From assembly GCA_963840855.1 (NCBI GenBank), contig CAWJBB010000040.1:263707-327706 (forward strand): a stretch of 64,000 nt of DNA, given 5' to 3'. Made by a program: the position numbers and the translations under genes. This DNA is from an uncultured delta proteobacterium (GTDB lineage Bacteria > Desulfobacterota > Binatia > UBA9968). This document shows, one piece after another, positions 9,576-36,446 of the stretch. Position 1 is the stretch's first letter. Each line of letters starts with the position of its first letter. The notes under the pieces were generated by a model. It was not told the origin of the DNA. It saw only the letters and a list, made by a program, of their open reading frames with translations, and searched no databases.

Positions 9576-11375
9576 ATGCATGGGTTTTACGGCCGCTTGC
9601 TGCACATCGACTTGAGCACCGGGCGGATCTCCTGGCATGATCTTGCGCCGTCGCGCCTTCGGGAAGTCCTCGGCGGCATTGGCCTTGGCACAAGCCTCCT
9701 CTACGATTATGCCACGCCAGGAGTCGATCCTTTTTCTCCCGCCAACCCGCTAATCTTTACCAGCGCCCCGTTAGTCGGCACTGGTCTCACCACCACCGCC
9801 AAGTTTGCCGTCGTCACCAAATCCCCGCTTACCGGTTTCATCGCCGACTCGCTCTCCTCCAGCTACTTCGCCCTCGAACTCAAGCGCACAGGTCTGGACG
9901 GCCTAATGATTACTGGCCAGGCGGCTTCTTTGGCGTACATCCACATCCATAATGAGAACGTCGAGATCAGGGACGCCGGTTACTTGATGGGAAAAAATGC
10001 AAGCGAGACCGAATCCCTGATCCGCACCGAGTTGAGCTCTCCGGCAACGCGGGTGGCTGCCATCGGCAAAGCGGGAGAGAACCGAGTGCGCTTTGCCACC
10101 ATCAGCAACGAAGGGCGTCACGCCGGCCGGGGTGGGGTCGGCGCGGTCATGGGATCGAAGAATTTGAAGGCAATTGCCCTATGCGGAGATCGAGAGACCG
10201 AGGTAGCCGATCGAAAAGGCGTCGAAGCGATCGCAAAATCTCTCAGCTCGCGCAGTCTTGGTTCACTCACCGACAAGTATCGAAATATCGGCACTGTCGC
10301 CAACCTAGCGGTTTTCAATCGCCTCGGCACTTTGCCCACGCGCAATTTCCAGCAATCGACCTTTGATCACGCCGAAGCCTTGAGCGGAGAAACTCTGACG
10401 GAAAACAACTTCAGCCGGAGACATGGCTGCGCCTGCTGCACGATCCGCTGCGAGCGCCTGTTCAAGTCCCTCGCCGGCGAGGAGCAGCGCCTGGAGTACG
10501 AAACCCTTTTCGCCCTGGGTCCGCTTTGCGGAATTCAAGATCCGGACGTGGTGCTCCAGGCCGCGCGCCTGTGTGATCTCTATGGAGTGGACACCATCAG
10601 CACCGGTGGCACCTTGGCCTGGGCAATGGAGTGCAGCGAACACGGACTCTTGCCCGAAGCTCGAGAGCTTGGCTTGCGCTTTGGCCAAGCGGATGCTCTT
10701 CTCGCTGCGATTCCGGCCATCGCCGAGCGTAGAGGTGTCGGCGCGCTGCTGGCCGAAGGCTCAAAGCGCGCCGCCTGCGAGATTGGCGGAGAGAGTTTGT
10801 ATTGGGCGATGCACGTAAAGGGACTCGAGCTTCCAGGATATGAGCCGCGCAGCTTGAAGACGATGGCTCTCGGCTTGGCCGTGAGCCCGCGCGGCGCCTG
10901 CCATAACCGCTCCGGGGCGTACGAGGCTGACTTCTCGGGCGAAGTCGACAGGCTGCGCGCTGACTCAGGGAGAGGGGCTCTGGTTGCAGCCTCGGAAGAT
11001 TTCGCCGCGGTGCTCGATTCACTGATAGTCTGTAAATTCCTGCGCAAGTGTTTCACGGACTTTTACGGTGAGGCCGCCGAACTGCTCAATCGGGTCACCG
11101 GATGGAACTGCTCGGGCGCCGAATTGCGGCGCGCCGGCGAGCGAATCCATTCGCTCAAGAAACTTTTTAACATGCGTGAAGGTTGGCGGCCTGAAGACGA
11201 CTGGCTGCCGCAACGCTTGTTGAGCGAAACTCTCCCGACTGGCGTGGCCCAGGGTGTCGGCTTAACCGCCAAAGAACTTCGGGAGATGATCCTGGGATAT
11301 TATCGGGCAAGGGGATGGGACGAAAACGGATCTATTCCCGAGAGCAAGTTGGGGGAGCTAGGGATTCAAACATGA
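9576..11375 (+). CDS. aor: aldehyde:ferredoxin oxidoreductase family tungstoenzyme
   Basis: 599 aa. YGRLLHIDLS N-terminus, C-x2-C-x3-C cluster motif (GCACCTIRC), and AOR domains 2 and 3 throughout. Confidence 0.9.
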   Translation: MHGFYGRLLHIDLSTGRISWHDLAPSRLREVLGGIGLGTSLLYDYATPGVDPFSPANPLIFTSAPLVGTGLTTTAKFAVVTKSPLTGFIADSLSSSYFALELKRTGLDGLMITGQAASLAYIHIHNENVEIRDAGYLMGKNASETESLIRTELSSPATRVAAIGKAGENRVRFATISNEGRHAGRGGVGAVMGSKNLKAIALCGDRETEVADRKGVEAIAKSLSSRSLGSLTDKYRNIGTVANLAVFNRLGTLPTRNFQQSTFDHAEALSGETLTENNFSRRHGCACCTIRCERLFKSLAGEEQRLEYETLFALGPLCGIQDPDVVLQAARLCDLYGVDTISTGGTLAWAMECSEHGLLPEARELGLRFGQADALLAAIPAIAERRGVGALLAEGSKRAACEIGGESLYWAMHVKGLELPGYEPRSLKTMALGLAVSPRGACHNRSGAYEADFSGEVDRLRADSGRGALVAASEDFAAVLDSLIVCKFLRKCFTDFYGEAAELLNRVTGWNCSGAELRRAGERIHSLKKLFNMREGWRPEDDWLPQRLLSETLPTGVAQGVGLTAKELREMILGYYRARGWDENGSIPESKLGELGIQT

Positions 11376-11640
11376 AGAGTTCCGAGTTTCTGGTTCCGGT
11401 CGACTCGAAACTCAGGAACTCGGAAACTGGGAACTGCGAAATGACAGGAGGAATGAGCTATGCCAACCGATGAGACGCGTCGCGTGTTGAAAGTGTTCGG
11501 CGTTGCGGTGACCGCTTATGAAGACGCGGTGGACAAAGGGGCGCCACCCGAGGAAGCGCGAAAAGCCGAGGCGGAAGTCCGCGCCCGCCTCGAAGAGGTG
11601 ACCGGCCTGATCGAGCGGCTGCGCGCGAAGAAGACGTCAT
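10560..11640 (+). repeat. direct repeat copy A (aor 3' 815 nt, structured spacer, small ORF)
   Basis: Hand alignment to 35380-36446 gives about 16 substitutions in the 815-nt coding part. The spacer has indels and the small ORF is nearly identical. Confidence 0.85.
11376..11442. repeat. GAAC-periodic inverted/tandem repeat between aor and the small ORF
   Basis: gagttccgagtttctggttcc ... ggaactcggaaactgggaactgcgaaat. The arms are reverse complements with heptamer periodicity. Confidence 0.5.
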
Positions 11641-11642
11641 GA
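11460..11642 (+). CDS. small helical protein of unknown function, linked to aor
   Basis: 60 aa with a GGAGGA RBS. Charged helical sequence (EEARKAEAEVRARLEEVTGLIERLRAKK). Retained in the second repeat copy. Confidence 0.5.
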   Translation: MPTDETRRVLKVFGVAVTAYEDAVDKGAPPEEARKAEAEVRARLEEVTGLIERLRAKKTS

Positions 11643-11792
11643 TTCTGAGCGATCTTCTTTCTTGGCCTGCTCTCACCTGCTCGTTCAATTCCCCCAGTTC
11701 TATAGTCTCTTCCTTGAGGCGGCGTATAGAGATCAGAAGCCGAAGGCACGCTACGGAGCGCTAGAACTCGATCCGCCTGAGATTTCCTTGCC

Positions 11793-12401
11793 TCAACGCG
11801 GATGAGTCTTGTCGGCCGGCATTTGATCGGTTTCCGTCTCGTCCCATGCGGTCGAGCCATCCAGGCTTTCCACATTGAACTGGTAGTCGTAAACCAGAGA
11901 GCCCCCAAATGTCGCGCCGTAGGAAACCAGCGCTCCTGCAAGGATCGATAGGATCATCGTGGAGAATCTGGTGTTCGCCTCTTCGAACTGCAAAAGACGG
12001 ACGATAATGTCCACAATCACGATGCCAGTGACAGTGAGCATCACGGCCATGTGCCAGTTGGCGGTGCGCCAAACCTGCGTGTGTTTGGCTTTGCCCGGAA
12101 ACCCGGTTGATGGTTGTCGGTCCATGCCCTTCCACCAATCCCAAAAGCCCGTAAGGGCGGTCCCCAGAGAGACGATGGCGCCGGCGATGATCACATAGGT
12201 ACCAGAGACAAAGAAATCTCGGGCTACACCACTATGGGCGCCAAAATAAGAGATGACATCGAATACCGCCACCAGCACATAACAGACGATCGGGAAATCG
12301 GTAAGCGGCGGATGAAGTGGCTTGCCTGCCCAACCGCGCAGTCCTCTGAACTCGCGGCCCTTTAACGTCATCGATGGTTTGATCGAGAATAGTCTGGTCA
12401 T
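11793..12401 (-). CDS. DUF2231-like membrane protein
   Basis: HPPLTDFPIV motif and 4-5 TM helices. Its start overlaps the upstream peptide stop as ATGA (12398-12401). Confidence 0.7.
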   Translation of the reverse strand: MTRLFSIKPSMTLKGREFRGLRGWAGKPLHPPLTDFPIVCYVLVAVFDVISYFGAHSGVARDFFVSGTYVIIAGAIVSLGTALTGFWDWWKGMDRQPSTGFPGKAKHTQVWRTANWHMAVMLTVTGIVIVDIIVRLLQFEEANTRFSTMILSILAGALVSYGATFGGSLVYDYQFNVESLDGSTAWDETETDQMPADKTHPR

Positions 12402-12604
12402 GTCTCCTCCCTGGCTACACGATAAGTCGCTTCCACGCTAAGGCTCCTGAATTCCGGAGAAAGCTCCTTGCTCATCTTCCACCTTCCGAACCCAGCCACC
12501 AGTCCGGCAACACCAACAAAGAGGATTACCACCATGATAGGGAGAGCAATGACAGAAAAAAGGCCGACAGCTATAAGGCCGAGAATTGAATATAAAATAC
12601 TCAT
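12398..12604 (-). CDS. small hydrophobic membrane peptide (paralog of 22542-22769)
   Basis: MSILYSILGLIAVGLFSVIALPIMVVILFVGVAGLVAGFGRWKM. AAAGGA RBS 6 nt before the ATG at 12604. Confidence 0.55.
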   Translation of the reverse strand: MSILYSILGLIAVGLFSVIALPIMVVILFVGVAGLVAGFGRWKMSKELSPEFRSLSVEATYRVAREET

Positions 12605-12732
12605 GTAGATCCTTTCCAAGCTTCTCTAAAGGTTTGATTACCTATAAGCGTAAGATAAGTGCCATCGACGACAAAGCAGCCTCTCGAAGAGCACGGGATC
12701 ATTGACGGCTCCTCGGCTTAGCTGCCGCGCAA

Positions 12733-13374
12733 TTAACGCGTAGGTTCATGGTTTTGGTTTTTGGTATCGACCTGGAGACGTTCTTCGACTACGCTCCAAT
12801 CAATGTTGGCGAAAAACGCCTCAATATATTTCGGGCGTTCAGCGGGTTTATAGTCGAGCAGGAATGCGTGTTCCCATACGTCCATCACGAGCACTGGATT
12901 AAATCCCGCCACATTGCCGATTTCGTGCAACGTTACCCAGTGATTGGTGAGCCGCCCGCGTTTTGGATCCTGAAAGCAGATCGCCCAGCCCACGCCGCGC
13001 ATTTTGCCGATGCTTACAAAGTCGGCTTTCCAGATGTCGTAGCTAGCGAAGCCTGCCTCGGCGGCTTTATAGAAAGCAGACTGCTTGCCCGGATCACCCG
13101 ACGCTGCTTTAGTCATGTTTCCAAAGTAATATTCATGCAGCACCATCCCGTTGTATTCAAAGCCGAGACGACGGGTCAGTTCTGAGTAGGCTGGCATTTC
13201 CTCCTGATCGACATGCCCATCCTTCAAGAAATCCCAGATTCTTTCTGTTAACCGGTTGGTTTCTTTAACGTAGCCCTCATACAGCTTGAAGTGCATTTCC
13301 AAAGTCCGATCCGAGATGCCATGAAGTCCGCTAAGGTTGAACTGCTTAGCTTGATACGACCCATTTTTAACCAT
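12733..13374 (-). CDS. Fe/Mn-family superoxide dismutase
   Basis: DVWEHAFLLDY metal-ligand motif and EMHFKLYEGYV N-terminal helix motif. Confidence 0.9.
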   Translation of the reverse strand: MVKNGSYQAKQFNLSGLHGISDRTLEMHFKLYEGYVKETNRLTERIWDFLKDGHVDQEEMPAYSELTRRLGFEYNGMVLHEYYFGNMTKAASGDPGKQSAFYKAAEAGFASYDIWKADFVSIGKMRGVGWAICFQDPKRGRLTNHWVTLHEIGNVAGFNPVLVMDVWEHAFLLDYKPAERPKYIEAFFANIDWSVVEERLQVDTKNQNHEPTR

Positions 13375-13488
13375 AGATTATTCCTCCTTCTCTTACTTTG
13401 ATCTCAACAGCCAGCAGCTAAGCGAGAGCCGCATAAGCTCGCCGCCGGACTTGGGGCTAATCTGGTTCTCGTCGCGCTGTTACGAACT

Positions 13489-14013
13489 TTATATTCCTCC
13501 AAATTGATACCCTGCTCTTTCCAGTGCACGCGTGATGGCCTGGAGGATTAACGGGCCATCAGAATGGGGCGCCACGCGAACGTCGGGAGCAGAGCGTAGA
13601 CGATCGAGAAGCGACTCTGCTTCCGAACCGGCCAACGCTTCGGAAGTTTCATAGGGACCCCCAGCTTCTTCCTCAATGGGATTGTGCCGTTCCAGGATCA
13701 TACGAATAGTTGCGATGATCCCGAAAGTCGGTGTGGGCACAAGGAGTGCGGCGAGCGCGCCATGATCAAGACGGAGTTTAGCGGCAATCGGCAGTGGCTC
13801 GCCCCCACGTTTCTTTTGGGCAAACGGAAGCAGGACCTTTTCCTCCATGGCGATGTGCCTGAGCAAGCCTGCACGAAACTCGGCATAGGCAGCAAAATCG
13901 ATCTGTTCCGGACGGCAGGTAGCCCGATCAAGCAATTCGGACAGACGAAGATGATCATCGACAAGGAACCTGTGAATCGGTCTCGCCGTTAAGTGTCCTC
14001 CGCAATTATTCAT
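13489..14013 (-). CDS. hemerythrin HHE cation-binding domain protein
   Basis: Helical protein with H/E ligand spacing (DDHLRL, RHIAMEEKVL, LDHGAL, ERHNPIEEE). The internal ATG at 14013 is preferred. Confidence 0.65.
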   Translation of the reverse strand: MNNCGGHLTARPIHRFLVDDHLRLSELLDRATCRPEQIDFAAYAEFRAGLLRHIAMEEKVLLPFAQKKRGGEPLPIAAKLRLDHGALAALLVPTPTFGIIATIRMILERHNPIEEEAGGPYETSEALAGSEAESLLDRLRSAPDVRVAPHSDGPLILQAITRALERAGYQFGGI

Positions 14014-14072
14014 TAGTAACGCCCACGATCCTTGCACCCGGGGCACTCAAACCCATTTGTTCGTTGCTTAGC

Positions 14073-15197
14073 TTACGTTGAAGCCAGGGACTCTGCGCCT
14101 GCGACAATTCTCTTGCGTTTTTCCTCGACCGCAGCCAGTAGCTGATCAAAAGACGCAGCAAAGGCGGAAACACCATCCGCTTGCAGCTTCTCAGTGATTG
14201 CGTCCAGATCAATGCCAAGATTCTTCAGGCGGCGTAAATCCAACTCTGCCTCCTTCAATCCTTCTTCCAAGGTAGAACCCTTCACCCGACCATGATCTCT
14301 GAAGGCGTTCAGTGTGGCCGGAGGTAACGTATTGACCGTATCAGGTCCGATGAGATTTTCCACGTAGAGGACATCGGAGTAGTTGGGGTTTTTCGTTCCC
14401 GTACTAGCCCAGAGCGGGCGCTGGACCCTCGCCCCTCGACTGCGCACGATCGCGAAACCTTCCCCATGAAAGACCTCGCGAAAGCGCTGGTACACGACCT
14501 TGCAGTTAGCGATGCCGATTTTACCCAAAAGCGCTCTCGCCTCCTCTATGCGTAATTTTTCCAGCGCGCCGTCAACCACGATGTCAACGCGACTGACAAA
14601 AAATGATGCAACCGAGGAGAGCTGTCCGGGATTCGAGCAGCGCTGCAATCCCCGGATATAGGCCCGTGCCACCGCCTCGTAGTGCTTCATCGAGAACATG
14701 AGAGTGATGTTGACATTCACTCCGTCGGCAATGAGGGCTTCGATAGCCGGAATTCCTTGCGGTGTTGCCGGAACTTTGATCATGACGTTCGGCCGGTCAA
14801 CTTCCGCCCGCAATCGCTTAGCTTCATCAATCGTCCCTGCGGTATCATGAGCGAGATGCGGCGCCACCTCGATGCTGACAAAACCGTCGCCGCCTCCCGT
14901 CTCATGGTAGATGGGGCGCAGGATATCCGCCGCTTCGCGGATATCCTCGATGGCCAGTCTCTCGAACAGTTTGCCTGCCTCGATTTGCGAATCCTTCGCA
15001 AGCAGGGTACGCAGGGCATCGTCATAATCGGTGCTGCCGGCAATCGCTTTTTCGAAAATCGTGGGATTGCTGGTTACGCCCCGTACCCCATCTTCTTCCA
15101 CGAGCCGTTTGAGCTCGCCGCTTTGAATAAGTCGTCTCTGGATGTAATCCAACCAGATGGACTGTCTTTGCTTCAGCAATTCTTTCAACGGGTTCAT
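14073..15197 (-). CDS. tal: transaldolase
   Basis: VTSNPTIFEKA and the Schiff-base lysine context MIKVPAT, 374 aa. Confidence 0.9.
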   Translation of the reverse strand: MNPLKELLKQRQSIWLDYIQRRLIQSGELKRLVEEDGVRGVTSNPTIFEKAIAGSTDYDDALRTLLAKDSQIEAGKLFERLAIEDIREAADILRPIYHETGGGDGFVSIEVAPHLAHDTAGTIDEAKRLRAEVDRPNVMIKVPATPQGIPAIEALIADGVNVNITLMFSMKHYEAVARAYIRGLQRCSNPGQLSSVASFFVSRVDIVVDGALEKLRIEEARALLGKIGIANCKVVYQRFREVFHGEGFAIVRSRGARVQRPLWASTGTKNPNYSDVLYVENLIGPDTVNTLPPATLNAFRDHGRVKGSTLEEGLKEAELDLRRLKNLGIDLDAITEKLQADGVSAFAASFDQLLAAVEEKRKRIVAGAESLAST

Positions 15198-15904
15198 GAT
15201 GCCGCCTTTGTGCTTTATTTCTTGTTTGATTTGCGAATCTGTCTACCAGACCTCTCGTTTACGACCGAACAAGAATCTTGTCATGCAATTTTTAAAAAAC
15301 TTAGATCGCAACTGTTGTGCCAAATCCTGGATGTAACGACCGTCACGAGACAGATCACTTTCGATGGTTTGCAAAAACATCAAGGATAGCTGGACGTTCA
15401 CACGGGCCAGTTTCCTGGCACTACTCTTGAGTAGAGTAATCAAACGCCGACGGACAGGACGCCCTATTCTTGAAAGCGGTTAGAGTGAGTTTGGGACAAG
15501 CGCAAAGTTCAAGACAATGATCGCATCCTTGGAGCACTAAAAACAGTTGTTGAAACCGGCGTCCAGGGAAACTCGCACAACCGAAACGAGAAAAAGAATA
15601 TCCGTCTACAGGAGGACGACGAAGAGCGCAAGAATGCCACACTACCCACACAATTTTGCCGCATTCGATCTTCTACCGTGATCCAATTTCCAGTATTTGA
15701 GCATAAGACACTTGCGCCGGCGCGTTCAGCTTTGGCATAAACCTTGCGCTTGTAAGTTTATAGAACTGTAAAGCCACTCGACGGGTTTTTGCCAAGGCCG
15801 CGGGGGATTTCGGACCGGATGAAACAGCGGTGACGAGTTTACCGAGAGTGACGATCCTAATTCATTAAAGGAATCCGCGGCGAAAAATATCATCAGGAGG
15901 CATA

Positions 15905-17101
15905 ATGTCACACTATACATACTTGATCGTTGGTGGAGGGATGACCGCTGATGCTGCGGTTAGAGGTATTCGGGAAGTAGATGCATTTCGCTCCATTGGC
16001 GTGTTCAGCATGGAGTCTGACCCGCCTTATAACCGACCACCTCTTTCAAAGGATCTTTGGAAGGGAGCGCCTATGACAAGTATCTGGCGGAAAACCGAGG
16101 ATCAAGGTGCGGAGCTTCACCTCGGCTGCAAGGTCGAGAGCATCGATCCGCAACAAAAGCGCATTATCGATAATAAGGGAACGTCCCATTCTTTTGACAA
16201 ACTGCTCCTGGCCACAGGCGGATCTCCTCGGCAACTCCCATTTGGAGCAGGCCAGATCATTTACTTCAGGACAATAACGGATTATCGGCGGTTGCAGGCG
16301 CTTGCTGAAAAAGGGCAGCGCTTTGCGGTTATCGGCGGTGGCTTTATCGGTTCGGAAATTGCCGCAGGCTTGGCGTCAAACGGAAAACAAGTGACGATGA
16401 TCACACCTGAGCAGACCATCGGGAGCCGCGTGTTTCCTCACGATTTGGGGCTTTACTTAAATGCGTACTACGAAGACAAGGGAGTTAAGCTCCTTACCGA
16501 AGAAGCAGTCGTGGACGTGGAAGCGCGCGGGGATTTCGTTGCCGTCAAGAGCCGCGCTTTGAAAACCGCACAGGATCGAGAGGTCGTCGTGGATGGCGTC
16601 GTGGCCGGCATCGGCATCAAGACAAATGTCGAACTGGCGCTGGGAGCGGGACTCCAGGTTGACAACGGGATAGTGGTGGACGAGTTCCTCCGCACAAACC
16701 ACCCAGACATCCATGCGGCCGGAGACGTAGCCGCTTTTTATAATCCTTTGCTCAGCAAGCGCATTCGTGTGGAACATGAAGACAATGCCAACACAATGGG
16801 CCGGCTGGCGGGCCGTAACATGGCTGGCGAACGAGAGCCTTATGACCACCTTCCTTCCTTCTATTCGGATCTTTTCGAATTGAGCTACGAGGCTGTGGGA
16901 GAATTAGACCCTAGGCTTGAGATCGTAACAGGCTGGACAGAGAAGAACGGCTCGGGCGCGATATATTACCTCCGCGAGAGTCGCGTTCGCGGGGTGCTTT
17001 TGTGGAACATCTGGGGAGCGGTAAATGCGGCCCGGGAGCTGATTGCCCAACTAGGCCCGTTTAACCTCGAGGATCTTAAGAAACGGCTCCCTTTAGGTTA
17101 A
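15905..17101 (+). CDS. FAD/NAD(P)-dependent pyridine nucleotide-disulfide oxidoreductase (ferredoxin reductase / AIF-like)
   Basis: IVGGGMTADAA and VIGGGFIGSEIA dinucleotide folds, AAGDVA motif. Confidence 0.8.
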   Translation: MSHYTYLIVGGGMTADAAVRGIREVDAFRSIGVFSMESDPPYNRPPLSKDLWKGAPMTSIWRKTEDQGAELHLGCKVESIDPQQKRIIDNKGTSHSFDKLLLATGGSPRQLPFGAGQIIYFRTITDYRRLQALAEKGQRFAVIGGGFIGSEIAAGLASNGKQVTMITPEQTIGSRVFPHDLGLYLNAYYEDKGVKLLTEEAVVDVEARGDFVAVKSRALKTAQDREVVVDGVVAGIGIKTNVELALGAGLQVDNGIVVDEFLRTNHPDIHAAGDVAAFYNPLLSKRIRVEHEDNANTMGRLAGRNMAGEREPYDHLPSFYSDLFELSYEAVGELDPRLEIVTGWTEKNGSGAIYYLRESRVRGVLLWNIWGAVNAARELIAQLGPFNLEDLKKRLPLG

Positions 17102-17457
17102 TGAGGTTACGAAAGCGCATCTTGAAATTGGCATTCAGGCCACGTTTTTCACGAAACTTTCAGGGCAAGGATGGGGCAAGAATGTGTGGCGATTGGGGCA
17201 TTTTTGCGCCTTACGTAGCTCTTGGAAGCGTAGTTGTTTAATACACCTTTAGTGAACGCTAACACTTGGATTGCGATCGCCGCTCTGGTTCGACCAGCTC
17301 ACCATGAATGGAATTCTTCTCGCTGTTCCGTTCGTACTGAGGCTCGGCTGATAAAAGCATTGTGGCGTTGGTACATTCGGAAAAATACGATCTGATCATC
17401 ATGTCCACAATCGGCAGCGCCAGTTTAACCCGCTCGTCAGAACTTCCCCGCGTCAGC

Positions 17458-17911
17458 TTAGGAAAAAGTATAGAAGGTACCTAAGATAACGCCAAAGATG
17501 ATGTGTGCAATGACCACTGACATCGGAGTCTGAAATCCATAGTTTAGCGCGAGAAAACCGGGAGGCTCTAGCTGGCGCATCAGAGTAGGTCCCTGTTGTT
17601 CACTGGCCATTCGCGGGTGGAGAACGGGCATGAGCCGCATACCAGCGGTAAGAACGAAGCTCGCGTGCACAAGTCCCGTTAGCGCCCCAGAGGTGGAACG
17701 CAGCCACATATATGAGCGAAAACAACCACCCGTTAATCAAATGGAGAAAAAAACCGATAAGCTTTGCACGGTCTCGGCTGGGCGTGAACATGCTGCCGAG
17801 CATGTAAGGAAGATTCATCCGCGTAAAACCAAGCCCTTGGCTCCCGGCCATCAGAGTCGTTAGAACGATTGTAGCCACAAATCCCCAGAGAGCCCAGCTG
17901 CCCCAGTTCAT
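17458..17911 (-). pseudogene. multi-pass membrane protein, frame-broken at about 17685
   Basis: Two overlapping ORFs (17600-17911 and 17458-17709) join as ...YVAAFHLWGA/LTGLVHASF... across a CCCC run at 17685-17688. The start overlaps the GH15 stop by 4 nt. Confidence 0.5.
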
Positions 17912-22524: not shown

Positions 22525-22541
22525 TAGCGCCTACCTATCCT

Positions 22542-25541: not shown

Positions 25542-25545
25542 GGCT

Positions 25546-27087: not shown

Positions 27088-27269
27088 TTGAATAGAATGT
27101 GTGAAAACTTGACCTTTTTTGCTACAGACGATTTCAAGCGCGTGTTGAGAAGGGCTTCGTGGTGAGTCTTTCCACCAAACATCATATGGGCGGTCACGGC
27201 ATGCGAAATGCCCACCCTTCGACCGTGCCAAAAAAGCCCCATGGTCTTTCGCCTTCTTGGGAGGTCGCG

Positions 27270-27845: not shown

Positions 27846-27884
27846 TTTCCACCATCCGTTTATATCGTTTCGCTTCCGACAGTG

Positions 27885-27900
27885 AGCAAGAACCGTGCCC
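27885..27900 (-). promoter_or_regulatory. sigma-54 (-24/-12) promoter upstream of the ferredoxin-like gene
   Basis: The minus strand reads GGGCACGGTTCTTGCT, which fits GGCACG-N4-TTGCT exactly. The GC lies about 41 nt upstream of the 27845 ATG. Confidence 0.5.
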
Positions 27901-28073
27901 GACGCTATTGCGGATTGAAATTATCAGGCCTCAAACAGCAACAGGTCTTTTTTCACGCGACGGGTGTCGCCGTTTGAATTTTATGACATCGTTTTTGTCG
28001 AGCAGGTCAGGGATTTCTGGAAGGGCCGCTTCGTATAGATCCACGGGCTCCCGTGCGGGCGTCAGGCGTTGAA

Positions 28074-28527
28074 CTACGCGGCTTTGTGCGACGAGCCACT
28101 TTGCGACGACTGCGCGCCGATGACCGACGCGCAGAAATTTAACGATCCGCGGAGCTTTTCCGCCTCGTCACTGGCGATCGCAGCCAGATCCGACATTGAG
28201 ACAATTCCGAGCAGCTTTCCGCCCTGCGCAACCGGCAACCGTTTGATCCTTCTCGCGCGCATGACATCGGCCGCGGTCACGTGGTCCTCCTCAGGCCGCA
28301 AGACCATCACCGGCCGGCTCATGTGCGCCGAGACTTTGCAATAATAAGGATCATGCGCCCGGGCCAAGCAAACGAGTAAATCCCGGTCGGATGCCTTTCA
28401 CCGACCCCGCCCACGGTCACCACCAGACAGCTCACGTATTTCTCACGCATCCGCGCGCCGCAACTGCGATGGTCTCATCAGGCGCCGCCTGGATTACCTC
28501 GCCAACCATGATCTCGTGAAGCTTCAT
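28074..28527 (-). pseudogene. CBS-domain pair protein with at least 3 frame breaks
   Basis: MKLHEIMVGEVIQAAPDETIAVAAR / MREKYVSCLVVTVGG / SVKGI / SDRDLLVCLARAHDPYYCKVSAHMSRPVMVLRPEEDHVTAADVM... read in alternating frames between 28380 and 28470. Confidence 0.6.
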
Positions 28528-28639
28528 GCCGCTACTTCCTTGTTTTGTACTTTGTCGGCGAATATCTGGGAACCGGCGCTAGCAGTGATAATTGCCCGCC
28601 GCTTCCGGCTGATATACGATCTTCTGACTCTCAACCCCT

Positions 28640-28813
28640 TCAACCCTGTCGGCACTTTCCACTCCACAGTATCGCCGACTCGATATCAAAAAACCGGGTT
28701 TTCCCAATCCCCAGGATCTGCTGGATGTAGGATCTTTCGATTTCGTTATTCAGATAACGCTGGAGCATCTCTTTGACCTGACCGTCGGTAAACTTTTTAT
28801 GCAACTGAGCCAT
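28640..28813 (-). mobile_element. N-terminal remnant of an IS transposase (HTH part only)
   Basis: MAQLHKKFTDGQVKEMLQRYLNNEIERSYIQQILGIGKTRFF resembles the N-terminal HTH of IS transposases as I recall them. The catalytic part is absent and no inverted repeats were seen. Confidence 0.4.
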
Positions 28814-28981
28814 AACCAGAACCTCCGTTTTTGGCTCTAATTCTGGCTTGCAAAGGAGTTCACTTTTGATTCTTAAATGACACACCGCTTGTACCGGAAA
28901 AAAAGTTAGCGGAACTGGATATTCCCGCAATTCTGGATCTCACGTCTAGGCTCTCAAGTTAATCGAAACTCGAAAACCGTT

Positions 28982-29519
28982 ATGCGAAACCGCGCCGCTC
29001 ACCCGAAAATTTCCGCCGGCAATAAAAGTACAAGCCGCCATGAGTCGATGCGCTCGCTGAAACTACCTCAGCAAAGAAATACTGGCGGAGCTATTTGCTT
29101 GAACGATTTTTCCTGCACTGCAGCTCGATCTGGCGCAGGTCTCGTAAATGAGCAGCGCCGGACGCACCGGTTGGCGGCGTATTCGCCGCTGCGAGACATC
29201 GAGTTTGAATTTGCGCCCCGCCGCGCAGGACACGAACGCGAACATAGGAGCGGAGCGACTCGATGATATATTGATCAACGTGATGGAAGGAATGGCCGGA
29301 ATGGGCGTGAAGCACATCAGCATTGCCACTCGTGTGGCGTCAGGCCAGGTGGAAATTCGACTTTCAAGCCGGGAACGGATGGATCCGACTGCGTTCGGCA
29401 AGCGCCGGCTCGATCTCTACAATAGAACCCTCGGGTGGCTCGGCGACAGCCTCGAATGCAACCAAGATAATCTCGGCGCTGAATTCGTCATGAGACTGCC
29501 GGCGCTCCAGTCAATTTAA
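28982..29519 (+). pseudogene. possible decayed histidine-kinase C-terminal fragment
   Basis: ERLDDILINVMEGMAGMGVKHISIATRVASGQVEIRLS...GAEFVMRLPA resembles an HATPase_c core, but the G boxes are lost. Confidence 0.3.
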
Positions 29520-29529
29520 TTGGCCGCGC

Positions 29530-30765
29530 ATGAGCGACGATAGAATTCGGCCCATCATTTTTTTGATCCTTCTCTTGATTCTCCCCGAGAGACTCCTTGC
29601 TCAAGACATCGTGATCGGCATGTCCGCCGCGTTTAGCGGACCCTCAAAAGGCCTCGGCGTCGAGCTTTACCGGGGTTCGACGGCCTACCTCGATCATGTC
29701 AATCGAACGGGAGGGATTTACGGGCAGAGGATCGGGATCAAGGCCTACGATGATGGTTATAACCCCATCCCTGCCATTCGAAACACCATAAAACTCATTG
29801 AGCAGGACAACGCATTTTTGCTTTTCAACTATGTCGGGACTCCGACGGTGACGAGGATACTGCCCCTCCTAAAGAGCTACAAAGGGAGGTTCGTCTATCT
29901 CTTTACTCCGTTTACCGGAGCCGAGCCCCTCAGGCAGCCTCCTTACGGCGAATATGTTTTTAATCTGCGGGCTTCGTACAGTGATGAAACCGAGGGGTTG
30001 GTCGATCACTTTGTCTCCGCCGGCAAAAGCAGGCTCGCGGTTTTCTATCAAGCCGATGCCTATGGAAGAAGCGGATGGGACGGAGTCAAAAAAGCTCTGG
30101 CGAAAAATTATGGTCTAAAAATGGTCGGCGAGGCGACCTATCGGAGAGGGGCTGAATACTCTCAGAGTTTCAAGGAGCAAGTCGACATCATCAGGAAAAC
30201 GTCCGCGGATGTTGTTATATCTATCGGGGCTTACGCGGTCTGCGCCGCGTTTATCAGAGACGCTCGGATCGCGGGGCTCAATATTCCGATCGCCAATCTC
30301 TCTTTTGTCGGCAGTGAGAGCATGGCTGAGCTATTGCTTCAAAGTAGTCGGACCGCGGACAAGGACTATAAGAAAGATCTCATCAATTCGCAGGTGGTGC
30401 CTAGCTATCAGGATACCGCTCTGCCGGCGGTGCGGGAATATCGGCAGCTGATGGAAAAATTCCAGCCACTCCCGCCTCGGGATCTTACCGAAGTGGGATA
30501 TGCACCGCTGCCCCACAGCTATGTCGGTTTCGAGGGTTTTCTTAACGCAAAACTTCTCGTTGAAGTCCTAAAACGAATGGGCCCAGGTCCAACAAAAAGC
30601 CGCATTAAAGAAACCGTCGAAAGCATCAAAAGTGCCGATTTGGGAATCGATGCGTCGGTCACTTTCGGACCGCATAAGCATCAGGGGTTGGACAAGGTCT
30701 ATTACACCACAATGCAAGGGGACCGGTTTGTTCCGCTGTCGGATTGGCGGGGGTCGGAGAAATGA
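29530..30765 (+). CDS. periplasmic substrate-binding protein, LivK/type-1 PBP family
   Basis: Signal peptide, then IVIGMSAAFSGPSKGLG and a YGQRIGIKAYDDGYNP pattern. The stop overlaps the next start (ATGA at 30762-30765). Confidence 0.85.
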   Translation: MSDDRIRPIIFLILLLILPERLLAQDIVIGMSAAFSGPSKGLGVELYRGSTAYLDHVNRTGGIYGQRIGIKAYDDGYNPIPAIRNTIKLIEQDNAFLLFNYVGTPTVTRILPLLKSYKGRFVYLFTPFTGAEPLRQPPYGEYVFNLRASYSDETEGLVDHFVSAGKSRLAVFYQADAYGRSGWDGVKKALAKNYGLKMVGEATYRRGAEYSQSFKEQVDIIRKTSADVVISIGAYAVCAAFIRDARIAGLNIPIANLSFVGSESMAELLLQSSRTADKDYKKDLINSQVVPSYQDTALPAVREYRQLMEKFQPLPPRDLTEVGYAPLPHSYVGFEGFLNAKLLVEVLKRMGPGPTKSRIKETVESIKSADLGIDASVTFGPHKHQGLDKVYYTTMQGDRFVPLSDWRGSEK

Positions 30766-32298
30766 CCCGGGCAAGTCTCTTTACCAAAACCCTTGTGCTC
30801 ATCGTTGTTTTGTTCGGCATTATTGCAAGCGCCACCTCGATTCTCTCGGGCTGGAACCTCTACCGTAATCTTACCCAAGAGTATCAAAGCAAAGGTGTGG
30901 CAATCGCAAAGAGCATCGCCGATTCGAGCGTGGAAATGTTGTTGAATGCGGATGTGTCCACGATCCAGTCTGTGGTGGACCAGTTCACCGAGATCGAGGG
31001 AGTTTCCTATGTAATCGTCTTCGACGGCCAAGGCGAGGCCATTTCTCACACCTTTGTTCCCAACGTGCCTGGGGATGTGCTGGAGCTACAGAGGCAAACC
31101 CGAACTCAAGTCTTTAACGGCGGAGCCCGTACGAACAACTTGCGCGTTGAAGGAATGGGAGACTTCCTGGACATCGACCTTCCCGATTCTGGCTGGCGTC
31201 GCGGGATACGTGCATGTGGGCATGGATAGGTCGTTGATCCGATCGCGCATTTGGTCCGCTGTAGCGACGCAGCAAGCGGTTATGTTCATCATTTTTTTAT
31301 TGAGCGTGTTGGTCGCTTATGCTTTGGTGAACCGGATCTCTCGACCGCTCAAACAACTCGCGGCCCACGCCGGGAAGCTGGCGACGCAGGACTTTTCCAA
31401 ACCGGAGACTGGACCGTCGGACATCGGTCACTTGCCCGCCAATTCTCGCGACGAAGTAGGGGAGCTGGCGAAATCTTTCATCAATATGGAGTGCTCGCTG
31501 AGGCAGTCCGTCAAGGAACTCAAGGAGACAACGGCGGTCAGAGAACGGATTGAAAGCGAGCTGAAAATTGCCCGCGACATCCAGATGAGCATGGTGCCGA
31601 AGCTATTTCCTCCGTTTCCGCTCAGGCCCGAGTTTGACCTTCATGCGACGCTGGTTCCGGCACGGGAAGTGGGGGGAGACTTTTATGATTTCTTTTTCAT
31701 CGATGACAGCCACCTCTGTTTCGCCATCGGCGATGTATCTGGTAAAGGGATTCCCGCAGCTTTATTTATGGCCGTGACCAGGACCCTTTTTAGGACTACT
31801 GCCGGCAAAGTGAGCCGGCCGGATGAAATTTTATCTTTGTTGAATCGCGAGCTGTGTCGGGACAATGATTCATGCATGTTCGTGACCGTTTTTTGCGCCG
31901 TTTTGGATACTCGCACAGGAGAGGTGGAATACAGCAATGGCGGCCACAATCTTCCTTACTTTATCAGCCGTGATGAGACCAAGCTTTTGAAGAATACCGG
32001 CGGGATGGCGCTGGGTATTAAGGAAGACGCGACCTTCCGGTCGGAGAAACTGCAGCTTAAGGGCGGGGATCGACTTTTTCTTTACACAGACGGTGTAACC
32101 GAAGCGATGGATGAGGACGGGAATCAATATTCCGAACCTCGTTTGGAGGATTTTTTACATCAAGCCAACGGTTCTTCCGTATCCGAGATCATCCACGGCG
32201 CAGTCGAGAATGTAAGGAGCCATTCTGCCGGCATTCCCCAGTCGGACGACATTACCGTCTTGGCCTTGAAATTCTTGCTGAGAGCGGCGCAGTCATGA
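30762..32298 (+). CDS. membrane sensor PP2C phosphatase (TM, extracytoplasmic domain, HAMP, SpoIIE/RsbU-type PP2C), frame-broken at about 31182
   Basis: ORFs 30744-31229 and 31054-32298 join as ...GDFLDIDLP/ILAGVAGYVHVGMDRS across a CCC run. HAMP is NRISRPLKQLAAHAGKLATQDFS. PP2C is GGDFYDFFFIDDSHLCFAIGDVSGKGIPAALFMA. Confidence 0.8.
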
Positions 32299-32721
32299 GT
32301 GAAGTCATCGCGGTGGAGCTTAAAAACCAGCTCTTCGAGATTGAGCGGCTCGCGCGCATAGTCGACGATTTCGGGCGACGCCATCAAATCGCGGCGCAAA
32401 TCATCTACAACATGAAACTCGCCTTGGACGAGATTCTGACCAACGTTATCTCCTATGGCTACGACGATGCCGGGGAGCATCAGATTACCGCCCGCTTCTC
32501 CCTGGAACAGGGAAAATGGACCGCTGAAGTGGAGGACGGCGGGAGGCCTTTCAATCCTTTAACGTCCCCTGAGGCGAACACGCAACAATCACTCGGGAGC
32601 GCGTCCGATCGGCGGTTTGGGAATTCATCTCGTGCGCAAGTTGATCGATGAATTGGAATATCGCAGGCAGAACGACAAAAACCGCCTGGTTATGAGAATG
32701 AAATCTGAAAGGACCTTAACC
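32295..32721 (+). CDS. RsbW/SpoIIAB-like anti-sigma-type serine kinase (HATPase_c_2), frame-broken at about 32598
   Basis: LALDEILTNVISYGY N box in frame 0, then RPIGGLGIHLVRKLIDELEYRR G box in frame 1. ATGA overlap with the PP2C stop. No stop codon before the STAS start. Confidence 0.7.
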
Positions 32722-33058
32722 ATGAACATTCACGAAGAGAGAAACGACGGTGTGCTTATTATCGGTCTGGAAGGACGGCTTGACGCCACCAGCTCGAAGA
32801 TGTTTGAGGAAAAAACTCTCGCGACGATCGATGCGGGAGAGACACGGCTTGTTATTGATCTCTCCCAGCTCGACTATGTCAGCAGCGCGGGGCTCAGGGT
32901 CTTTCTCCTCGCGTCCAAACGATTGAATCCGGCAGGGGGTCAAGCTTGTGCTTTGCTCCTTGCAGGAACCCGTCAAGGAAGTCTTTGAAATCGTCGGCTT
33001 TTTCTCCGTTCTTTCGATACTTGGTTCCAAAGATGAGGCGTTGAAAAGCTTTCGGTAG
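32722..33058 (+). CDS. STAS-domain anti-sigma-factor antagonist (RsbV/SpoIIAA-like), frame-broken at about 32935-32941
   Basis: LIIGLEGRLDATSS...IDLSQLDYVSSAGLRVFLLASKRL, then after a GGGGG run KLVLCSLQEPVKEVFEIVGFFSVLSILGSKDEALKSFR and stop at 33056. Confidence 0.75.
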
Positions 33059-33107
33059 CTCGGCTCTTTCTTTAACTACCGTGTTCGCAGTGAAAGACAT
33101 ACGACGG

Positions 33108-34422
33108 CTATCGGAACTCGAACTCTTCGGTGATAATCCGATCGGACGGTATACCGAGCGCCCGGAACTGCCGGGCAAGATCCGAAACGAAGTTTAGTTG
33201 GCCGCACAGCATGACCGCGTAGTTATCCAAGGGCGCGATCTCCGCGGCAATTGCAGCGGCGGTGATTCTTCCCTGGCGCGCCGTTGCCCACAATACGTAG
33301 TCAACGTAGGACTCCGCATTCAAATAACTCTGGCTAATTTCCGAATCGTAAACTGCGTCGGCATTGTCGCGGACAACGTAGTAAAGCCAGATCCTCCGGA
33401 AATCCCGATTACTAAGTTCAAAAGCGAGCATGCCGAGAAATGGCGTGATGCCGACGCCTGCGCCGATGCAGACAAGGCGACGGAAACGAGCGAAGCGGTG
33501 CGGGGTGAAGCCACCGAACGGACCATAAACTTCCACTTGCTTGCCGGTTCGAGCGAGACGAGACGGCGTGTAAAATCTCCGATCATTCGGATCGACAAGC
33601 GCAGATCCCGATCAACCGGAGAAGAGGTGAGGGAAAATGGATGAAGTTCTTTCTCCGCCCCTTCCAAATCCGGCACGCGCAGGAAGACAAAAGTCCCGGG
33701 TTCGTACATCATGCGCCGGTCGACCGGACGCATCACAAGTTCAACGATATTGCTCCCCCGTGAAGCGACCGTTTCGATACGGTAATAATAGCGTGGCCCG
33801 AGTCGGTCGAACAGCAGCACGCGATAGAGCCACGCGGCTCCACCGGCCAGTATGAGAATCACTATCCACGTCCTCAACGGCTCGAAATCCGCTATCGTTC
33901 CAGGTTCCATGGCCGCATGCGCAGTGCCGGCGAGAAAGAGCGGGCCGAGAAACCGATGGATAAACAGCCAGCGCTCGTAGCTCATACGGTGATCGTAGGC
34001 AAGGCCTCCTAGCAGTAAGAGCAAATAGAAAGCGAGAATATCGATCGAACGTGCCGACTGCGACCAAAAAGGGATGAACAGATTACCGATGGAAGTACCA
34101 TACTAAGTTGTGCAAGAGCCAAAAAAATTACATGGACGACGAGCAGAACGATCGCTGATGGCCCGACGATTCTGTGGAAACGTACGGCCCGATCGAGACC
34201 GCCAAAAACCGGCTCGAAGGCGTGGGCGCGCACAACTGCGATCATGGCGATCGCCATTAAAGTTACCGACCAGAGAATGGTAAGCTGTGAAAGCGCACGC
34301 CAGGGCAGATAGTCAGGCGGCATCGGACCGGGGAATCGGGCAGCAGCCCAAAGAACAGTCGTGATTGTCATACACCCAACGGTCACAATCCAACTCAGTT
34401 GATGGGTGGGAAAGATTCTCAT
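33108..34422 (-). pseudogene. NOX/ferric-reductase-family flavocytochrome (TM bis-haem domain, FAD and NAD(P)H domains), 2 frame breaks
   Basis: H-x13-H (HRIVGPSAIVLLVVH) and H-x12-H (HRFLGPLFLAGTAH), an HPFS FAD motif and a GAGVGITPF NAD(P)H motif. Three ORF pieces join at about 34070-34095 and about 33545. Confidence 0.7.
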
Positions 34423-34608
34423 AAAGCTAAGCTGCCGGTTCGAGAATTGATGGCATTCAATCAGTTGGATGAGCGCCAGAGTTCACGCACCAATTTCGGA
34501 TTTTGATGAACTGACGCAGCAAAAGCTCGGGGCGGTTGAAACAACGACTGCGGCGGCTCCGAGCGACGAAATCAGGCCAACTGAGTAGACCGTATCTAGG
34601 TGCCGAGA

Positions 34609-35184
34609 CTAACTTGCTATCGAGCCCCGGATCGGCGACACCGGCTCGTGAATTTGGCGCACCAGAAAGTCTGACACAGGCGCCCCGGCGCGCAGTCGGG
34701 CAAGCCAGTCGTCGGGATCGTACTCGACGCCGACGGGATTTACGCTGAAGTTACCGTTGATGAATGCGTTGGCATCTTCATTCGAACTGAAACTATCAAC
34801 CTGAAACTCCATCTGATTGCCATCGGGGTCTCTGTAGTACATCGAAACCGTGATACCGTGATGGATACACCAGTAAGGACTGATTCCTTTCGCTTTGAGT
34901 TGCGCATATTTCTCGAAGAGGTCATTCAAAGACGCATAGGTATACGCAACGTGGTCGACACCGATCATTCCCTGACGATCAGTCTCGGCGCCGTCAGGCT
35001 GGAGAATCGACAGATTGGCAAACGCAAATCGGTGGTGTTCGTCATCATAGGTCAGAAAAGCCAGCGCTGGGTTCTGGTACTGGATCTCGGCGTCGAAAAC
35101 GGTTTTATACCAGCTCAACATCTGCTCGAAACGGCGGCTGCGGTAAAGAACATGCGCAAACTTTGTCGGGCGAATGGACGACAT
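34609..35184 (-). CDS. VOC (glyoxalase/extradiol dioxygenase) family protein
   Basis: FAHVLYRS...VDHVAYTY...MYYRDPDGNQMEF beta-alpha-beta-beta-beta modules. The ATG at 35184 is preferred. Confidence 0.75.
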   Translation of the reverse strand: MSSIRPTKFAHVLYRSRRFEQMLSWYKTVFDAEIQYQNPALAFLTYDDEHHRFAFANLSILQPDGAETDRQGMIGVDHVAYTYASLNDLFEKYAQLKAKGISPYWCIHHGITVSMYYRDPDGNQMEFQVDSFSSNEDANAFINGNFSVNPVGVEYDPDDWLARLRAGAPVSDFLVRQIHEPVSPIRGSIAS

Positions 35185-35313
35185 GATTTCCCCTTTCGAA
35201 TCGCGACCTGGAATTGCCATCTGGCGAATTTAGCAAAAAATCTTTCGGGTCGATAGTGCCCAACTATATCACCCCCTTTCATATTACAAGGGGAGACGAG
35301 GGGATCGGCTACG

Positions 35314-36195
35314 ATGATTGAGCGAAGAAATCACTCACATTGCTCCACGGATTGCGTCAAGCGTTTTCCGCGCCAGAGGGCGGCGCGCCTGTGTGATCTC
35401 TACGGAGTGGACACCATCAGCACCGGCGGCACCTTGGCCTGGGCAATGGAATGCAGCGAACACGGACTGTTGCCCGAAGCTCGAGAGCTTGGCTTGCGCT
35501 TTGGCCAAGCGGATGCTCTTCTCGCTGCGATTCCGGCCATCGCCGAGCGTAGAGGCGTCGGCGCGCTATTGGCCGAAGGCTCAAAGCGCGCTGCCTGCGA
35601 GATTGGCGGAGAGAGTTTGTATTGGGCGATGCACGTAAAGGGACTCGAGCTTCCAGGATATGAGCCGCGCAGCTTGAAGACGATGGCTCTCGGCTTGGCC
35701 GTGAGTCCGCGCGGCGCCTGCCATAACCGCTCCGGCGCGTACGAGGCTGACTTCTCGGGCGAAGTCGATAGGCTGCGCGCTGACTCAGGGAGAGGGGCTC
35801 TGGTTGCAGCCTCGGAAGATTTCGCCGCGGTGCTCGATTCACTGATAGTCTGTAAATTCCTGCGCAAGTGTTTCACGGACTTTTACGGCGAGGCCGCCGA
35901 ACTGCTCAATCGGGTCACCGGATGGAACTGCTCGGGCGCCGAATTGCGGCGCGCCGGCGAGCGAATCCATTCGCTCAAGAAACTTTTCAACATGCGTGAA
36001 GGTTGGCGGCCTGAAGACGACTGGCTGCCGCAACGCTTGTTGAGCGAAACTCTCCCGACTGGCGTGGCCCAGGGTGTCGGCTTAACCGCCAAAGAACTTC
36101 GGGAGATGATCCTGGGATATTATCGGGCAAGGGGATGGGACGAAAACGGATCTATTCCCGATCACAAGTTGGGGGAGCTAGGGATTCAAACATGA
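35314..36195 (+). pseudogene. 5'-truncated aor fragment (last 270 or so codons), direct repeat copy B
   Basis: From about 35380 it is colinear with aor 10560-11375. The protein is identical except ES to DH near the C-terminus. The upstream 22 codons are unrelated. Confidence 0.85.
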
Positions 36196-36256
36196 AGAGT
36201 TTCTGGTTTCTGGTTGATTCGAAATTAGCAACCAGAAACTGGGAACTAGAAACTCT
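36196..36256. repeat. GAAC-periodic hairpin repeat downstream of the aor fragment
   Basis: agagtttc...gaaactct outer stem and gtttctggttg/caaccagaaac inner stem around the palindromic loop attcgaaattag. Confidence 0.5.
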
Positions 36257-36265
36257 GGAGGAATC

Positions 36266-36446
36266 ATGCCAACCGATGAGACACGCCGCGTGTTGAAAGT
36301 GTTCGGCGTTGCGGTGACCGCCTTATGAAGACGCGGTGGACAAAGGGGCGCCACCCGAGGAAGCGCGAAAAGCCGAGGCGGAAGTCCGCGCCCGCCTCGA
36401 AGAGGTGACCGGCCTGATCGAGCGGCTGCGCGCCAAAAAGCAATAA
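36266..36446 (+). pseudogene. second copy of the aor-linked small ORF, interrupted by a 1-nt insertion
   Basis: Identical start MPTDETRRVLKVFGVAVTA. An extra c at about 36317-36322 creates a TGA at 36326. The rest reads in the next frame to a TAA at 36444. Confidence 0.6.

Follow-up and report, generated by a model that had tools for sequence, protein, structure and literature searches.

Displaced gene ends in known systems and at the aor locus

Displacement arrays at Rhs, contact-dependent inhibition (CDI) and type VI secretion system (T6SS) loci are the closest described counterparts of the locus treated here, an aldehyde:ferredoxin oxidoreductase gene (aor) that is followed, in a 64,000-nt stretch of contig CAWJBB010000040.1 from an uncultured delta proteobacterium of soil (the window), by a second copy of its own 3' end. 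In those arrays, an intact gene is followed by 5'-truncated copies in the same orientation, each with a partial conserved core of variable length, a divergent tip and its own downstream genes; the cores are near-identical, the tips are dissimilar, and new tips acquired laterally push the old ones downstream (Jackson et al. 2009, PMC2935791; Kirchberger et al. 2017, PMC5361080). The mechanisms proposed are homologous recombination with circular intermediates, or homology-facilitated illegitimate recombination (HFIR), with later spread of the arrays by homologous recombination (PMC2935791; PMC5361080). Sequential displacement in T6SS effector-immunity arrays has been ascribed to HFIR (PMC5361080).

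The aor locus resembles these arrays in having a full-length gene and a truncated copy on the same strand, with a near-identical partial core (98% between the two copies, A and B) and dissimilar tails (around 60% alike between s-type and C-type). It differs from them in that the gene encodes a metabolic tungsto/molybdo-enzyme and not a polymorphic toxin, and in that the "tips" are a tail of 15-25 codons, with no toxin domains or immunity genes found among the genes downstream (a small open reading frame (smORF), the fdh operon, and stress and regulatory genes). Stress and regulatory genes make up the cargo, 6-17 kb in size, and both parents of one junction have been recovered, exposing its microhomology. 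The locus is best filed as a further instance of a known recombination process, displacement of a gene's 3' end, at a metabolic gene, and not as a member of the toxin families.

In HFIR (PMC5361080, PMC3240628), linear DNA is taken up by transformation or conjugation; one end of the incoming DNA is anchored by homology and the other is fused at short GC-rich microhomology, so that foreign DNA is gained with no recombinase or mobile element. The aor locus has such a GC-rich microhomology at the junction where copy B begins (b3), a one-sided anchor and foreign DNA, again without a recombinase. However, a second joint (b2), between the two cargo blocks D and C that lie between the repeat copies, lacks useful microhomology, and fusion took place within the stretch that has homology to the donor, giving a duplication of 0.8-1.07 kb and not a deletion. 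HFIR was also defined experimentally, with small substrates in transformation or conjugation, whereas the aor case is read from natural variants. Papers on HFIR cited there are de Vries & Wackernagel 2002, Prudhomme et al. 2002 and Meier & Wackernagel 2003 (via PMC5361080 and PMC3240628).

A third comparison is with e14 or phage 21 in icd and with islands in tRNA 3' ends. There, the insert supplies a new 3' end so that the target gene stays intact, and the old end, displaced to the far junction, persists there as a direct repeat that differs mainly at silent positions; integration uses a site-specific integrase and a fixed att core. The aor locus departs from these in having no integrase (among 40 ORFs), varying truncation points and a microhomology joint, and in that D and C do not move as a unit.

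The repeat and its two copies

By self-blastn, the 64-kb window contains a single repeat: 10559-11633 (copy A) recurs in direct orientation at 35379-36440 (copy B), with 95.5% identity over 1076 columns (33 mismatches, 7 gap openings). An earlier note on this DNA, made from the sequence alone, had placed it almost identically, at 10560-11640 and 35380-36446. The bracketed DNA is 11634-35378 (23,745 nt). Copy B begins at aor nt 984, and its orphan aor end (aor') belongs to an ORF of 293 aa with an ATG start (35314-36195), 22 codons of which are encoded by the junction.

Over the 816 nt of coding sequence compared (10560-11375 and 35380-36195), the copies differ at 17 nucleotides in 16 codons. 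Fourteen of the differences are at third positions, 14 of the codons are synonymous, and the other two are adjacent (ES to DH). With the Nei-Gojobori method (NG86), dN is 0.0049 and dS 0.074, a ratio of 0.067; in 20,000 neutral simulations of 17 substitutions, a mean of 11.7 codons were nonsynonymous and no run had two or fewer. The copies are thus supported as alleles that diverged under purifying selection and not as an in-situ duplicate drifting neutrally. The same reading had been proposed in the earlier note from a hand alignment, and both its substitution pattern and its allelic interpretation are borne out by the formal calculation. An internal pair of aor ends in a sibling contig (V2, see below) differs at 33 of 771 nt with a dN/dS of 0.12-0.14, so the same allelic signature is shown independently of the window. 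The spacer between aor and smORF (11376-11459 and 36196-36265) is only around 65% identical between the copies, with indels, in keeping with the divergence first noted by eye.

This spacer is hypervariable, yet folds each time into a strong hairpin with a differing stem (Table 1). Copy A's spacer has about 20 mismatches per 80 nt to those of L081 or L082, and GAAAC/GTTTC-type motifs repeat within it. Between L001 and L002, the spacer is 96% identical while the aor genes are only 83% identical.

Haplotypes at a recombination hotspot

The closest public relatives of the window are metagenome-assembled genomes (MAGs) of Binatia or "Deltaproteobacteria", and strain-level relatives (95-100% nt identity) were found among ENA long-read assemblies with contigs named contig_N. 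Three of the arrangements of the interval between aor and fdh are designated E0, V3 and V5. In E0, represented by L002, one continuous stretch is collinear with window positions 5427-11620 and 35379-45831, so that aor, smORF and fdnG are adjacent. This form is found in 11 contigs (L002, L170-L178 and L179); the ten besides L002 have 91-96% nt identity and come from nine JGI/Logan samples and one ENA sample. E0 is the common arrangement and probably the ancestral one. The neighbourhood of aor and fdnG that the earlier note had suggested looking for in related genomes is therefore real, and the product that it predicted for recombination between the repeats, aor-smORF next to fdh, equals this common form.

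In V3, which comprises V2 (ERZ25039469 contig_93707), L085 (ERZ25039591 contig_26162) and L087 (a JGI contig), aor has a "C-type" tail (LVPEKKLAEL...) and runs straight into block C, followed by aor', smORF' and fdh, with no D. In this arrangement, which is verified independently of the window, the repeat spans only aor nt 984-1756 and brackets around 6.5 kb. In V5 (contig_87893, contig_93710 and contig_124444), the order is aor-smORF-D-fdh: D (11634-28887) is followed by "TA" and then by the sequence from 36507 onward, with no C and no aor'. V5 and V3 haplotypes occur together in one sample, ERZ25039469 (contig_87893 and contig_93710 with contig_93707).

Among 80 relatives, the mobA-moaD homologue adjoins aor in 71 and around 40 keep the aor-smORF pair. 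The DNA after the pair varies by lineage: fdh may follow at once or after 3-4 kb, and elsewhere there is cluster C, DUF2231 or, immediately, g43307. By this comparison, the interval between aor-smORF and fdh is a plasticity hotspot, lying between conserved arms in a Binatia-like species group.

Junction b3 and the origin of copy B

At b3, the native continuation of block C, seen in JGI contigs L088 and L089, reads CCAGAGCGCGCGCCT/ATAG and aor reads CCAGGCCGCGCGCCT/GTGTG, where the window has CCAGAGGGCGGCGCGCCT GTGTG. A 9-mer, CGCGCGCCT, is common to aor and the C-lineage DNA and lies at most 4 nt from the breakpoint; with CCAG included, 13 of 15 positions are identical. L088 and L089 (90-92% nt identity) track the right end of C to 35382 and then continue into unrelated DNA, so that the second parent of b3 is recovered. 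The junction is reproduced in V2 and L085 besides the window (three independent assemblies) and in a protein record, P0039. In V2, it is identical and carries the 293-aa ORF, of which P0039 is a fourth variant with the same junction-encoded leader peptide. Judged from both parents, b3 is a microhomology-type illegitimate joint and not an att site.

On the left, the insertion of C is seamless through aor, as expected if one side was anchored by homology, and C is foreign to the recipient. The C-type tail is natively continuous with aor in V2, L085, L087 and L019, and since the tail and the DNA that follows it are contiguous with aor in L019, C brought its own 3' end of aor, and the resident end was pushed downstream. 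Copy B is of this resident type, as the earlier note had supposed when it spoke of a displaced resident end, and is natively continuous with smORF and fdh. Together, these comparisons make it very probable that copy B is a real displaced orphan created by homology-anchored illegitimate recombination. The note's island in the 3' part of aor, carrying its own replacement end, is thus upheld as to replacement and displacement, but not as to a single integrated element or an att-like site, b3 being a microhomology joint.

In the sequence of events envisaged, the V3 lineage would have taken in DNA whose donor lineage natively has cluster C behind aor. The incoming DNA would have been anchored by homology in aor or its left flank, and its other end closed by an illegitimate joint beside CGCGCGCCT, at which aor nt 984 became linked to a position lying 158 nt upstream of the gene for glyoxalase. 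With it would have come a complete 3' end of aor, including a tail of its own, and the resident 3' end and smORF would have been displaced downstream as the 5'-truncated orphan, copy B. The sequence would be the same whether the event was linear and one-sided (HFIR) or went through a circular intermediate with single-crossover integration. Block D is a separate cargo, alone between smORF and fdh in V5, and the orphan may later decay or exchange patches with live alleles.

In the orphan of L085, the substitutions are spread evenly over codon positions (11/9/14) and accompanied by indels, which indicates decay. Purifying selection on the 293-aa truncated ORF was considered and is not supported: all 6 changes between the window and V2 are at third positions, but L085 has this 11/9/14 spread with indels and P0039 has 12 amino-acid changes. 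Three rare third-position alleles (10607 T, 10916 G and 11168 T) are common to copy A and the orphan of V2, and are found in neither copy B nor other alleles. They are interleaved with orphan-specific sites, a pattern suggestive of gene conversion in patches between orphans and live copies.

If the origin proposed for copy B is true, the locus would be a clean natural example of homology-anchored illegitimate recombination, with both parents, visible microhomology, a common empty site and several intermediate haplotypes in wild populations. The displaced-3'-end architecture would then arise at a metabolic gene too, beyond the Rhs/T6SS toxin loci, and orphan gene ends would be usable as markers of cargo addition at hotspots.

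The joint between blocks D and C

The bracketed 23.7 kb is not a single element, and comparison with the sibling contigs resolves it into block D, a third aor remnant and block C. The remnant, overlooked in the first reading of the sequence, starts at the equivalent of aor nt 1757. Window positions 28888-36443 are collinear with L085 at 97.7% identity. The order in the window is thus the left arm with aor nt 1-1756, then the "s-type" tail, smORF and D, then the C-type tail, C, aor', smORF' and a 66-nt segment x, and finally the right arm from 36507 on. In other words, two alternative alleles of the hotspot stand end to end, with nothing lost or gained.

The joint between them, b2, is found in no sibling contig, whereas 11633/11634 and 35378/35379 are each reproduced in independent assemblies. 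A scan of JGI metagenomes for b2 gave 0 matches, and says nothing of the ENA samples. Both sides of b2 lie within 3 nt of the borders at which V5 and V3 become heterologous: D ends at 28887, the same nucleotide at which V5 joins fdh, and the remnant begins 1-3 nt past the point where the s-type and C-type aor lose identity. There is no usable microhomology at b2, and by a rough estimate, the chance that random illegitimate endpoints would give such a joint is about 1e-5 to 1e-6.

Alternative alleles placed in sequence, a junction at the borders of shared sequence and co-occurring haplotypes are also what false tandem placement by a consensus assembler produces. Contig names of the contig_N form agree with the Microflora Danica set, for which Flye --meta --nano-hq was used, with one Medaka round. 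In metaFlye, structural variants between strains form bubbles or loops that are handled by consensus heuristics, and strain mixtures are misassembled (Strainy preprint, 10.1101/2023.01.31.526521). From this comparative structure, the joint between D and C is somewhat more probably than otherwise a mis-resolution by metaFlye that concatenates two co-occurring strain haplotypes, a real second event being judged the less likely of the two. If the joint is artefactual, the two copies of the 1.07-kb repeat, 24.8 kb apart, would not belong to one genome: copy A would come from a V5-type aor end and copy B from a V3-type orphan. The specific 24-kb bracket is accordingly of doubtful reality, and when metaFlye assembles a MAG contig from mixed strains, two alternative alleles of a hotspot may end up in tandem and look like a 24-kb "island" flanked by repeats. 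Islands called in long-read MAGs should be viewed with this in mind.

The alternative that survives best is a genuine layout, in which C entered first (V3) and [s-type tail-smORF-D] was then added at aor nt 1757, orphaning a 75-nt C-type tail. This would give a nested array and a real 1.07-kb repeat 24.8 kb apart. In its favour, nested orphan arrays are usual at Rhs and T6SS loci, L085 has another nested event (smORF'-E-smORF''), the contig is neither joined inside shared sequence nor a simple walk of the graph, and the rare alleles common to copy A and the V2 orphan show exchange between A-like and orphan copies. However, b2 has both sides at heterology borders, with no loss, gain or microhomology, and is in no other assembly, and circular-intermediate and homologous routes give C before D, never D before C. 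A purely homologous exchange between V5 and V3 was rejected on this last ground, and a Campbell-type circular integration because it should leave a partial aor core or a partial fdh piece between D and the remnant, where none is present. The genuine layout is therefore given tentative standing, as a possibility that falls short of the artefact. A version in which recombining hotspot alleles keep both cargos, joined at homology borders by a border-specific process undescribed for HFIR, is unlikely. Were the layout real, an ordinary metabolic gene would carry nested arrays of displaced 3' ends, and C-terminal displacement of the Rhs type would no longer be confined to toxin loci.

The explanation preferred here, a hotspot with copy B as a true orphan and an artefactual D-C joint, is given an even chance of being right in its entirety, and several points weigh against one or other of its parts. 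For the orphan, the b3 breakpoint is shifted by 3 nt from the register of a simple crossover in the 9-mer. Copy B also has six private alleles, all synonymous, that occur in no sampled intact aor, so that its functional ancestor allele is deduced and not observed. For the joint, the verdict of artefact is drawn from comparative structure. The path of the window is no valid walk of a simple V5 plus V3 graph unless nodes separated by 300 nt and by 66 nt are taken as one. Flye may join nodes of its graph that are separated by a few hundred bases, and may unroll loops, which would give exactly the path seen. In addition, a genuine second event is plausible by analogy, nested 3'-end arrays being real at Rhs loci and L085 having its nested smORF duplication.

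The cargo and the remaining explanations

Block D encodes, by Pfam, DUF2231, Fe/Mn superoxide dismutase, hemerythrin-like, transaldolase, pyridine-nucleotide disulphide oxidoreductase, GH15, tandem-domain Usp and DUF488 proteins, a response regulator, a sigma54 activator, a histidine kinase, a ferredoxin, a CBS protein and a 57-aa ORF. It is 99.6-100% identical to its counterparts in L082, L083, L168 and L169. Block C encodes a 123-aa ORF, a periplasmic binding protein, a HAMP-SpoIIE phosphatase, an RsbW-like kinase, a STAS protein, a ferric-reductase-like protein (split) and a glyoxalase, and lies directly 3' of aor in V2, L085 and L087 as well as in the distant lineages L019, L034 and L073. 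D is around 100% identical between the window and L082/L083 while the adjacent aor is 94-98% identical, and near-identity starts at 11552 (L082) or 11630 (L081). The C-aor'-smORF' segment is 98-99.8% identical to V2, and divergence rises to 5-8% just past 36440. On these identities, both are young accessory blocks on older, recombining arms. The left edge of D is native in another lineage, L053, which has the same smORF ending followed by DUF2231. The DUF2231 gene (11792-12417) is 88.8% identical at the nucleotide level to L053 2370-2994 but aor only 73%, which indicates transfer of hotspot cargo across lineages.

This composition bears on the model of the earlier note taken literally, one 23.7-kb integrative element that inserted site-specifically in the 3' part of aor and brought its own replacement end, like tRNA islands or e14 in icd. 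A direct repeat of the target's 3' end, an intact upstream aor and an existing empty site all agree with it. However, D and C occur separately in sibling strains with a third tail scar between them in the window, the scars start at varying points (aor nt 984, aor nt 1757 and -4 of smORF), and b3 is a microhomology joint with an identified non-aor parent. The cargo also consists of ordinary chromosomal genes that are native beside aor in other lineages. Pfam on 40 ORFs between 11.4 and 35.4 kb found no integrase, recombinase, transposase or relaxase domain, only stress, metabolic and regulatory genes, in agreement with the earlier caveat that no integrase was visible. The only tRNA found by a tRNA/Rfam scan of the window is at 63.5 kb, with no other Rfam match and none at the boundaries. 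The single element is therefore very improbable.

Still less probable is that the whole repeat is an assembly chimera joined within shared aor, with no genome carrying a truncated aor'. In its favour, the source is a long-read metagenome of mixed strains in which indel errors occur, but 35378/35379 and 11633/11634 each recur in independent assemblies from different samples, and a join in shared sequence cannot make a novel junction at the edge of a repeat. The earlier note had seen such a chimera of strain variants as fatal to its island; no join inside the shared aor was found, copy B's junction recurring as above, while the signature of tandem haplotypes was found at the D-C joint. Least probable of all is an in-situ segmental duplication of the aor 3' end followed by drift, or a fusion of two old aor paralogues by deletion, which fits a direct repeat of one intact and one truncated copy but not a divergence that is almost purely synonymous (a truncated copy should drift neutrally, as that of L085 does), an empty form common to more than 10 contigs, or foreign DNA as the other parent of b3.

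The 57-aa ORF (P0001) at the right end of D is the insertion sequence (IS) remnant noted at 28.7 kb, a reading that is not supported. An ISNCY-type transposase stub was considered and dropped, as neither Pfam nor NCBIfam gave a match for the ORF and all of its homologues are small proteins (43-95 aa) without a transposase signature. No IS copies or ends were found at the segment boundaries. Sibling strains carry IS insertions that the window lacks: at 35287/35288, V2 has an IS4/Tn5-like element of 2.4 kb, with GACACGGGGG inverted repeats and a DruA-like N-terminal ORF, and the V5 contigs have a 2.06-kb DUF772-transposase element at 24128/24129, within D. The Tn5-type transposase fragment of V2 was rejected as the cause of the aor' truncation, as it has its own inverted repeats and ends around 115 nt before the junction.

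An age of the C-type scar greater than that of the species was also rejected, since L073 and L034 carry other genes, and no tail remnant, upstream of C. Within D, the transaldolase gene (14000-15000) is 87-89% identical to L081/L083 and 95% to L082, while D copies are around 100% identical elsewhere; this looks like local allele replacement within the block. In L085, an extra 5-kb block (14153-19145; cupin, pyridine-nucleotide disulphide oxidoreductase and FAD_binding_9) lies in the last codons of smORF', which is around 25% diverged, and has at its end 56 or more consecutive A residues, after which a second copy of smORF starts at -4. The poly-A may be an assembly artefact.

Features of the window and its flanks

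Table 1. Positions in the window of the aor locus, its repeat copies, cargo blocks and junctions.
Feature	Position	Strand	Basis and remarks
mobA-moaD fusion	8640..9572	+	NCBIfam MobA residues 6-198, MoaD/SAMP family 221-310; conserved left arm
aor, aldehyde:ferredoxin oxidoreductase, 599 aa	9576..11375	+	ORF/translation, NCBIfam AOR; s-type C-terminal tail ...GWDENGSIPESKLGELGIQT, then stop
Repeat copy A	10559..11633	+	aor nt 984-1800, spacer, smORF to 2 codons short of its stop
Spacer hairpin, copy A	11378..11435	+	-30.5 kcal/mol
smORF, 59 aa	11460..11639	+	directly 3' of aor in ~40 relatives
Block D, 17.3 kb cargo	11634..28887	.	Pfam
57-aa ORF (P0001), MAQLHKKFTDGQVKEMLQRYL...	28640..28813	-	right end of D; metagenome-only family of 43-95 aa proteins
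Junction b2, 28887/28888	28880..28895	.	end of D to third aor remnant; only in this window
Third aor remnant	28888..28962	+	last 24 codons and stop of C-type aor allele, LVPEKKLAELDIPAILDLTSRLSS
Block C, 6.4 kb cargo	28963..35378	.	Pfam
Junction b3, 35378/35379	35373..35391	.	GC-rich patch; window reads CCAGAGGGCGGCGCGCCTG
Repeat copy B	35379..36440	+	orphan aor 3' end 35379-36195, divergent hairpin spacer, smORF' 36266-36446
Spacer hairpin, copy B	~36198-36246	+	19-bp perfect stem unlike that of copy A; -26.2 kcal/mol
Segment x, 66 nt	36441..36506	.	between smORF' and fdh promoter; native in E0, missing in V5 (D abuts 36507)
fdh promoter region and operon	36507..43258	+	TTGACA near 36515; conserved right arm

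AFOR_N and AFOR_C domains are seen in the aor of sibling contigs, and smORF has no family match in NCBIfam or Pfam. Exact-protein look-ups of the window's AOR, glyoxalase, CBS protein and response regulator returned no record. In the right arm, fdnG starts at 36685, with a twin-arginine (Tat) signal and a selenocysteine (Sec) TGA at 37258, and is followed by fdnH, an NrfD-like gene and fdhE.

Several genes of the window are split or frameshifted. Relative to the Illumina MAG L002, in which fdnG is intact with one Sec codon, fdnG of the window has two single-C deletions, at ~37829 and ~39110. The ferric-reductase gene is in two parts (33320-34422), the CBS gene is interrupted at ~28400, and smORF' of copy B is frameshifted by an additional C at ~36321 (that of V2 is intact); sibling contigs also have many split genes. 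These single-base frameshifts look like residual Nanopore homopolymer error and not pseudogenisation. Since indel errors occur in the window and its siblings alike, such frameshifts, including that of smORF', are not to be read as biology.

Two further differences between strains lie outside the hotspot. Within fdnG, around 230 nt (37674-37907) cannot be aligned between the window and V2 (234 and 171 nt, respectively), although the flanks align and the window is collinear with L002. To the left of dnaB, there is a further structural breakpoint at ~5429, with a PEP-mutase-type flank in the window, V2 and L085 and TctCBA transporter genes in L081 and L172; several sibling contigs stop at this point.

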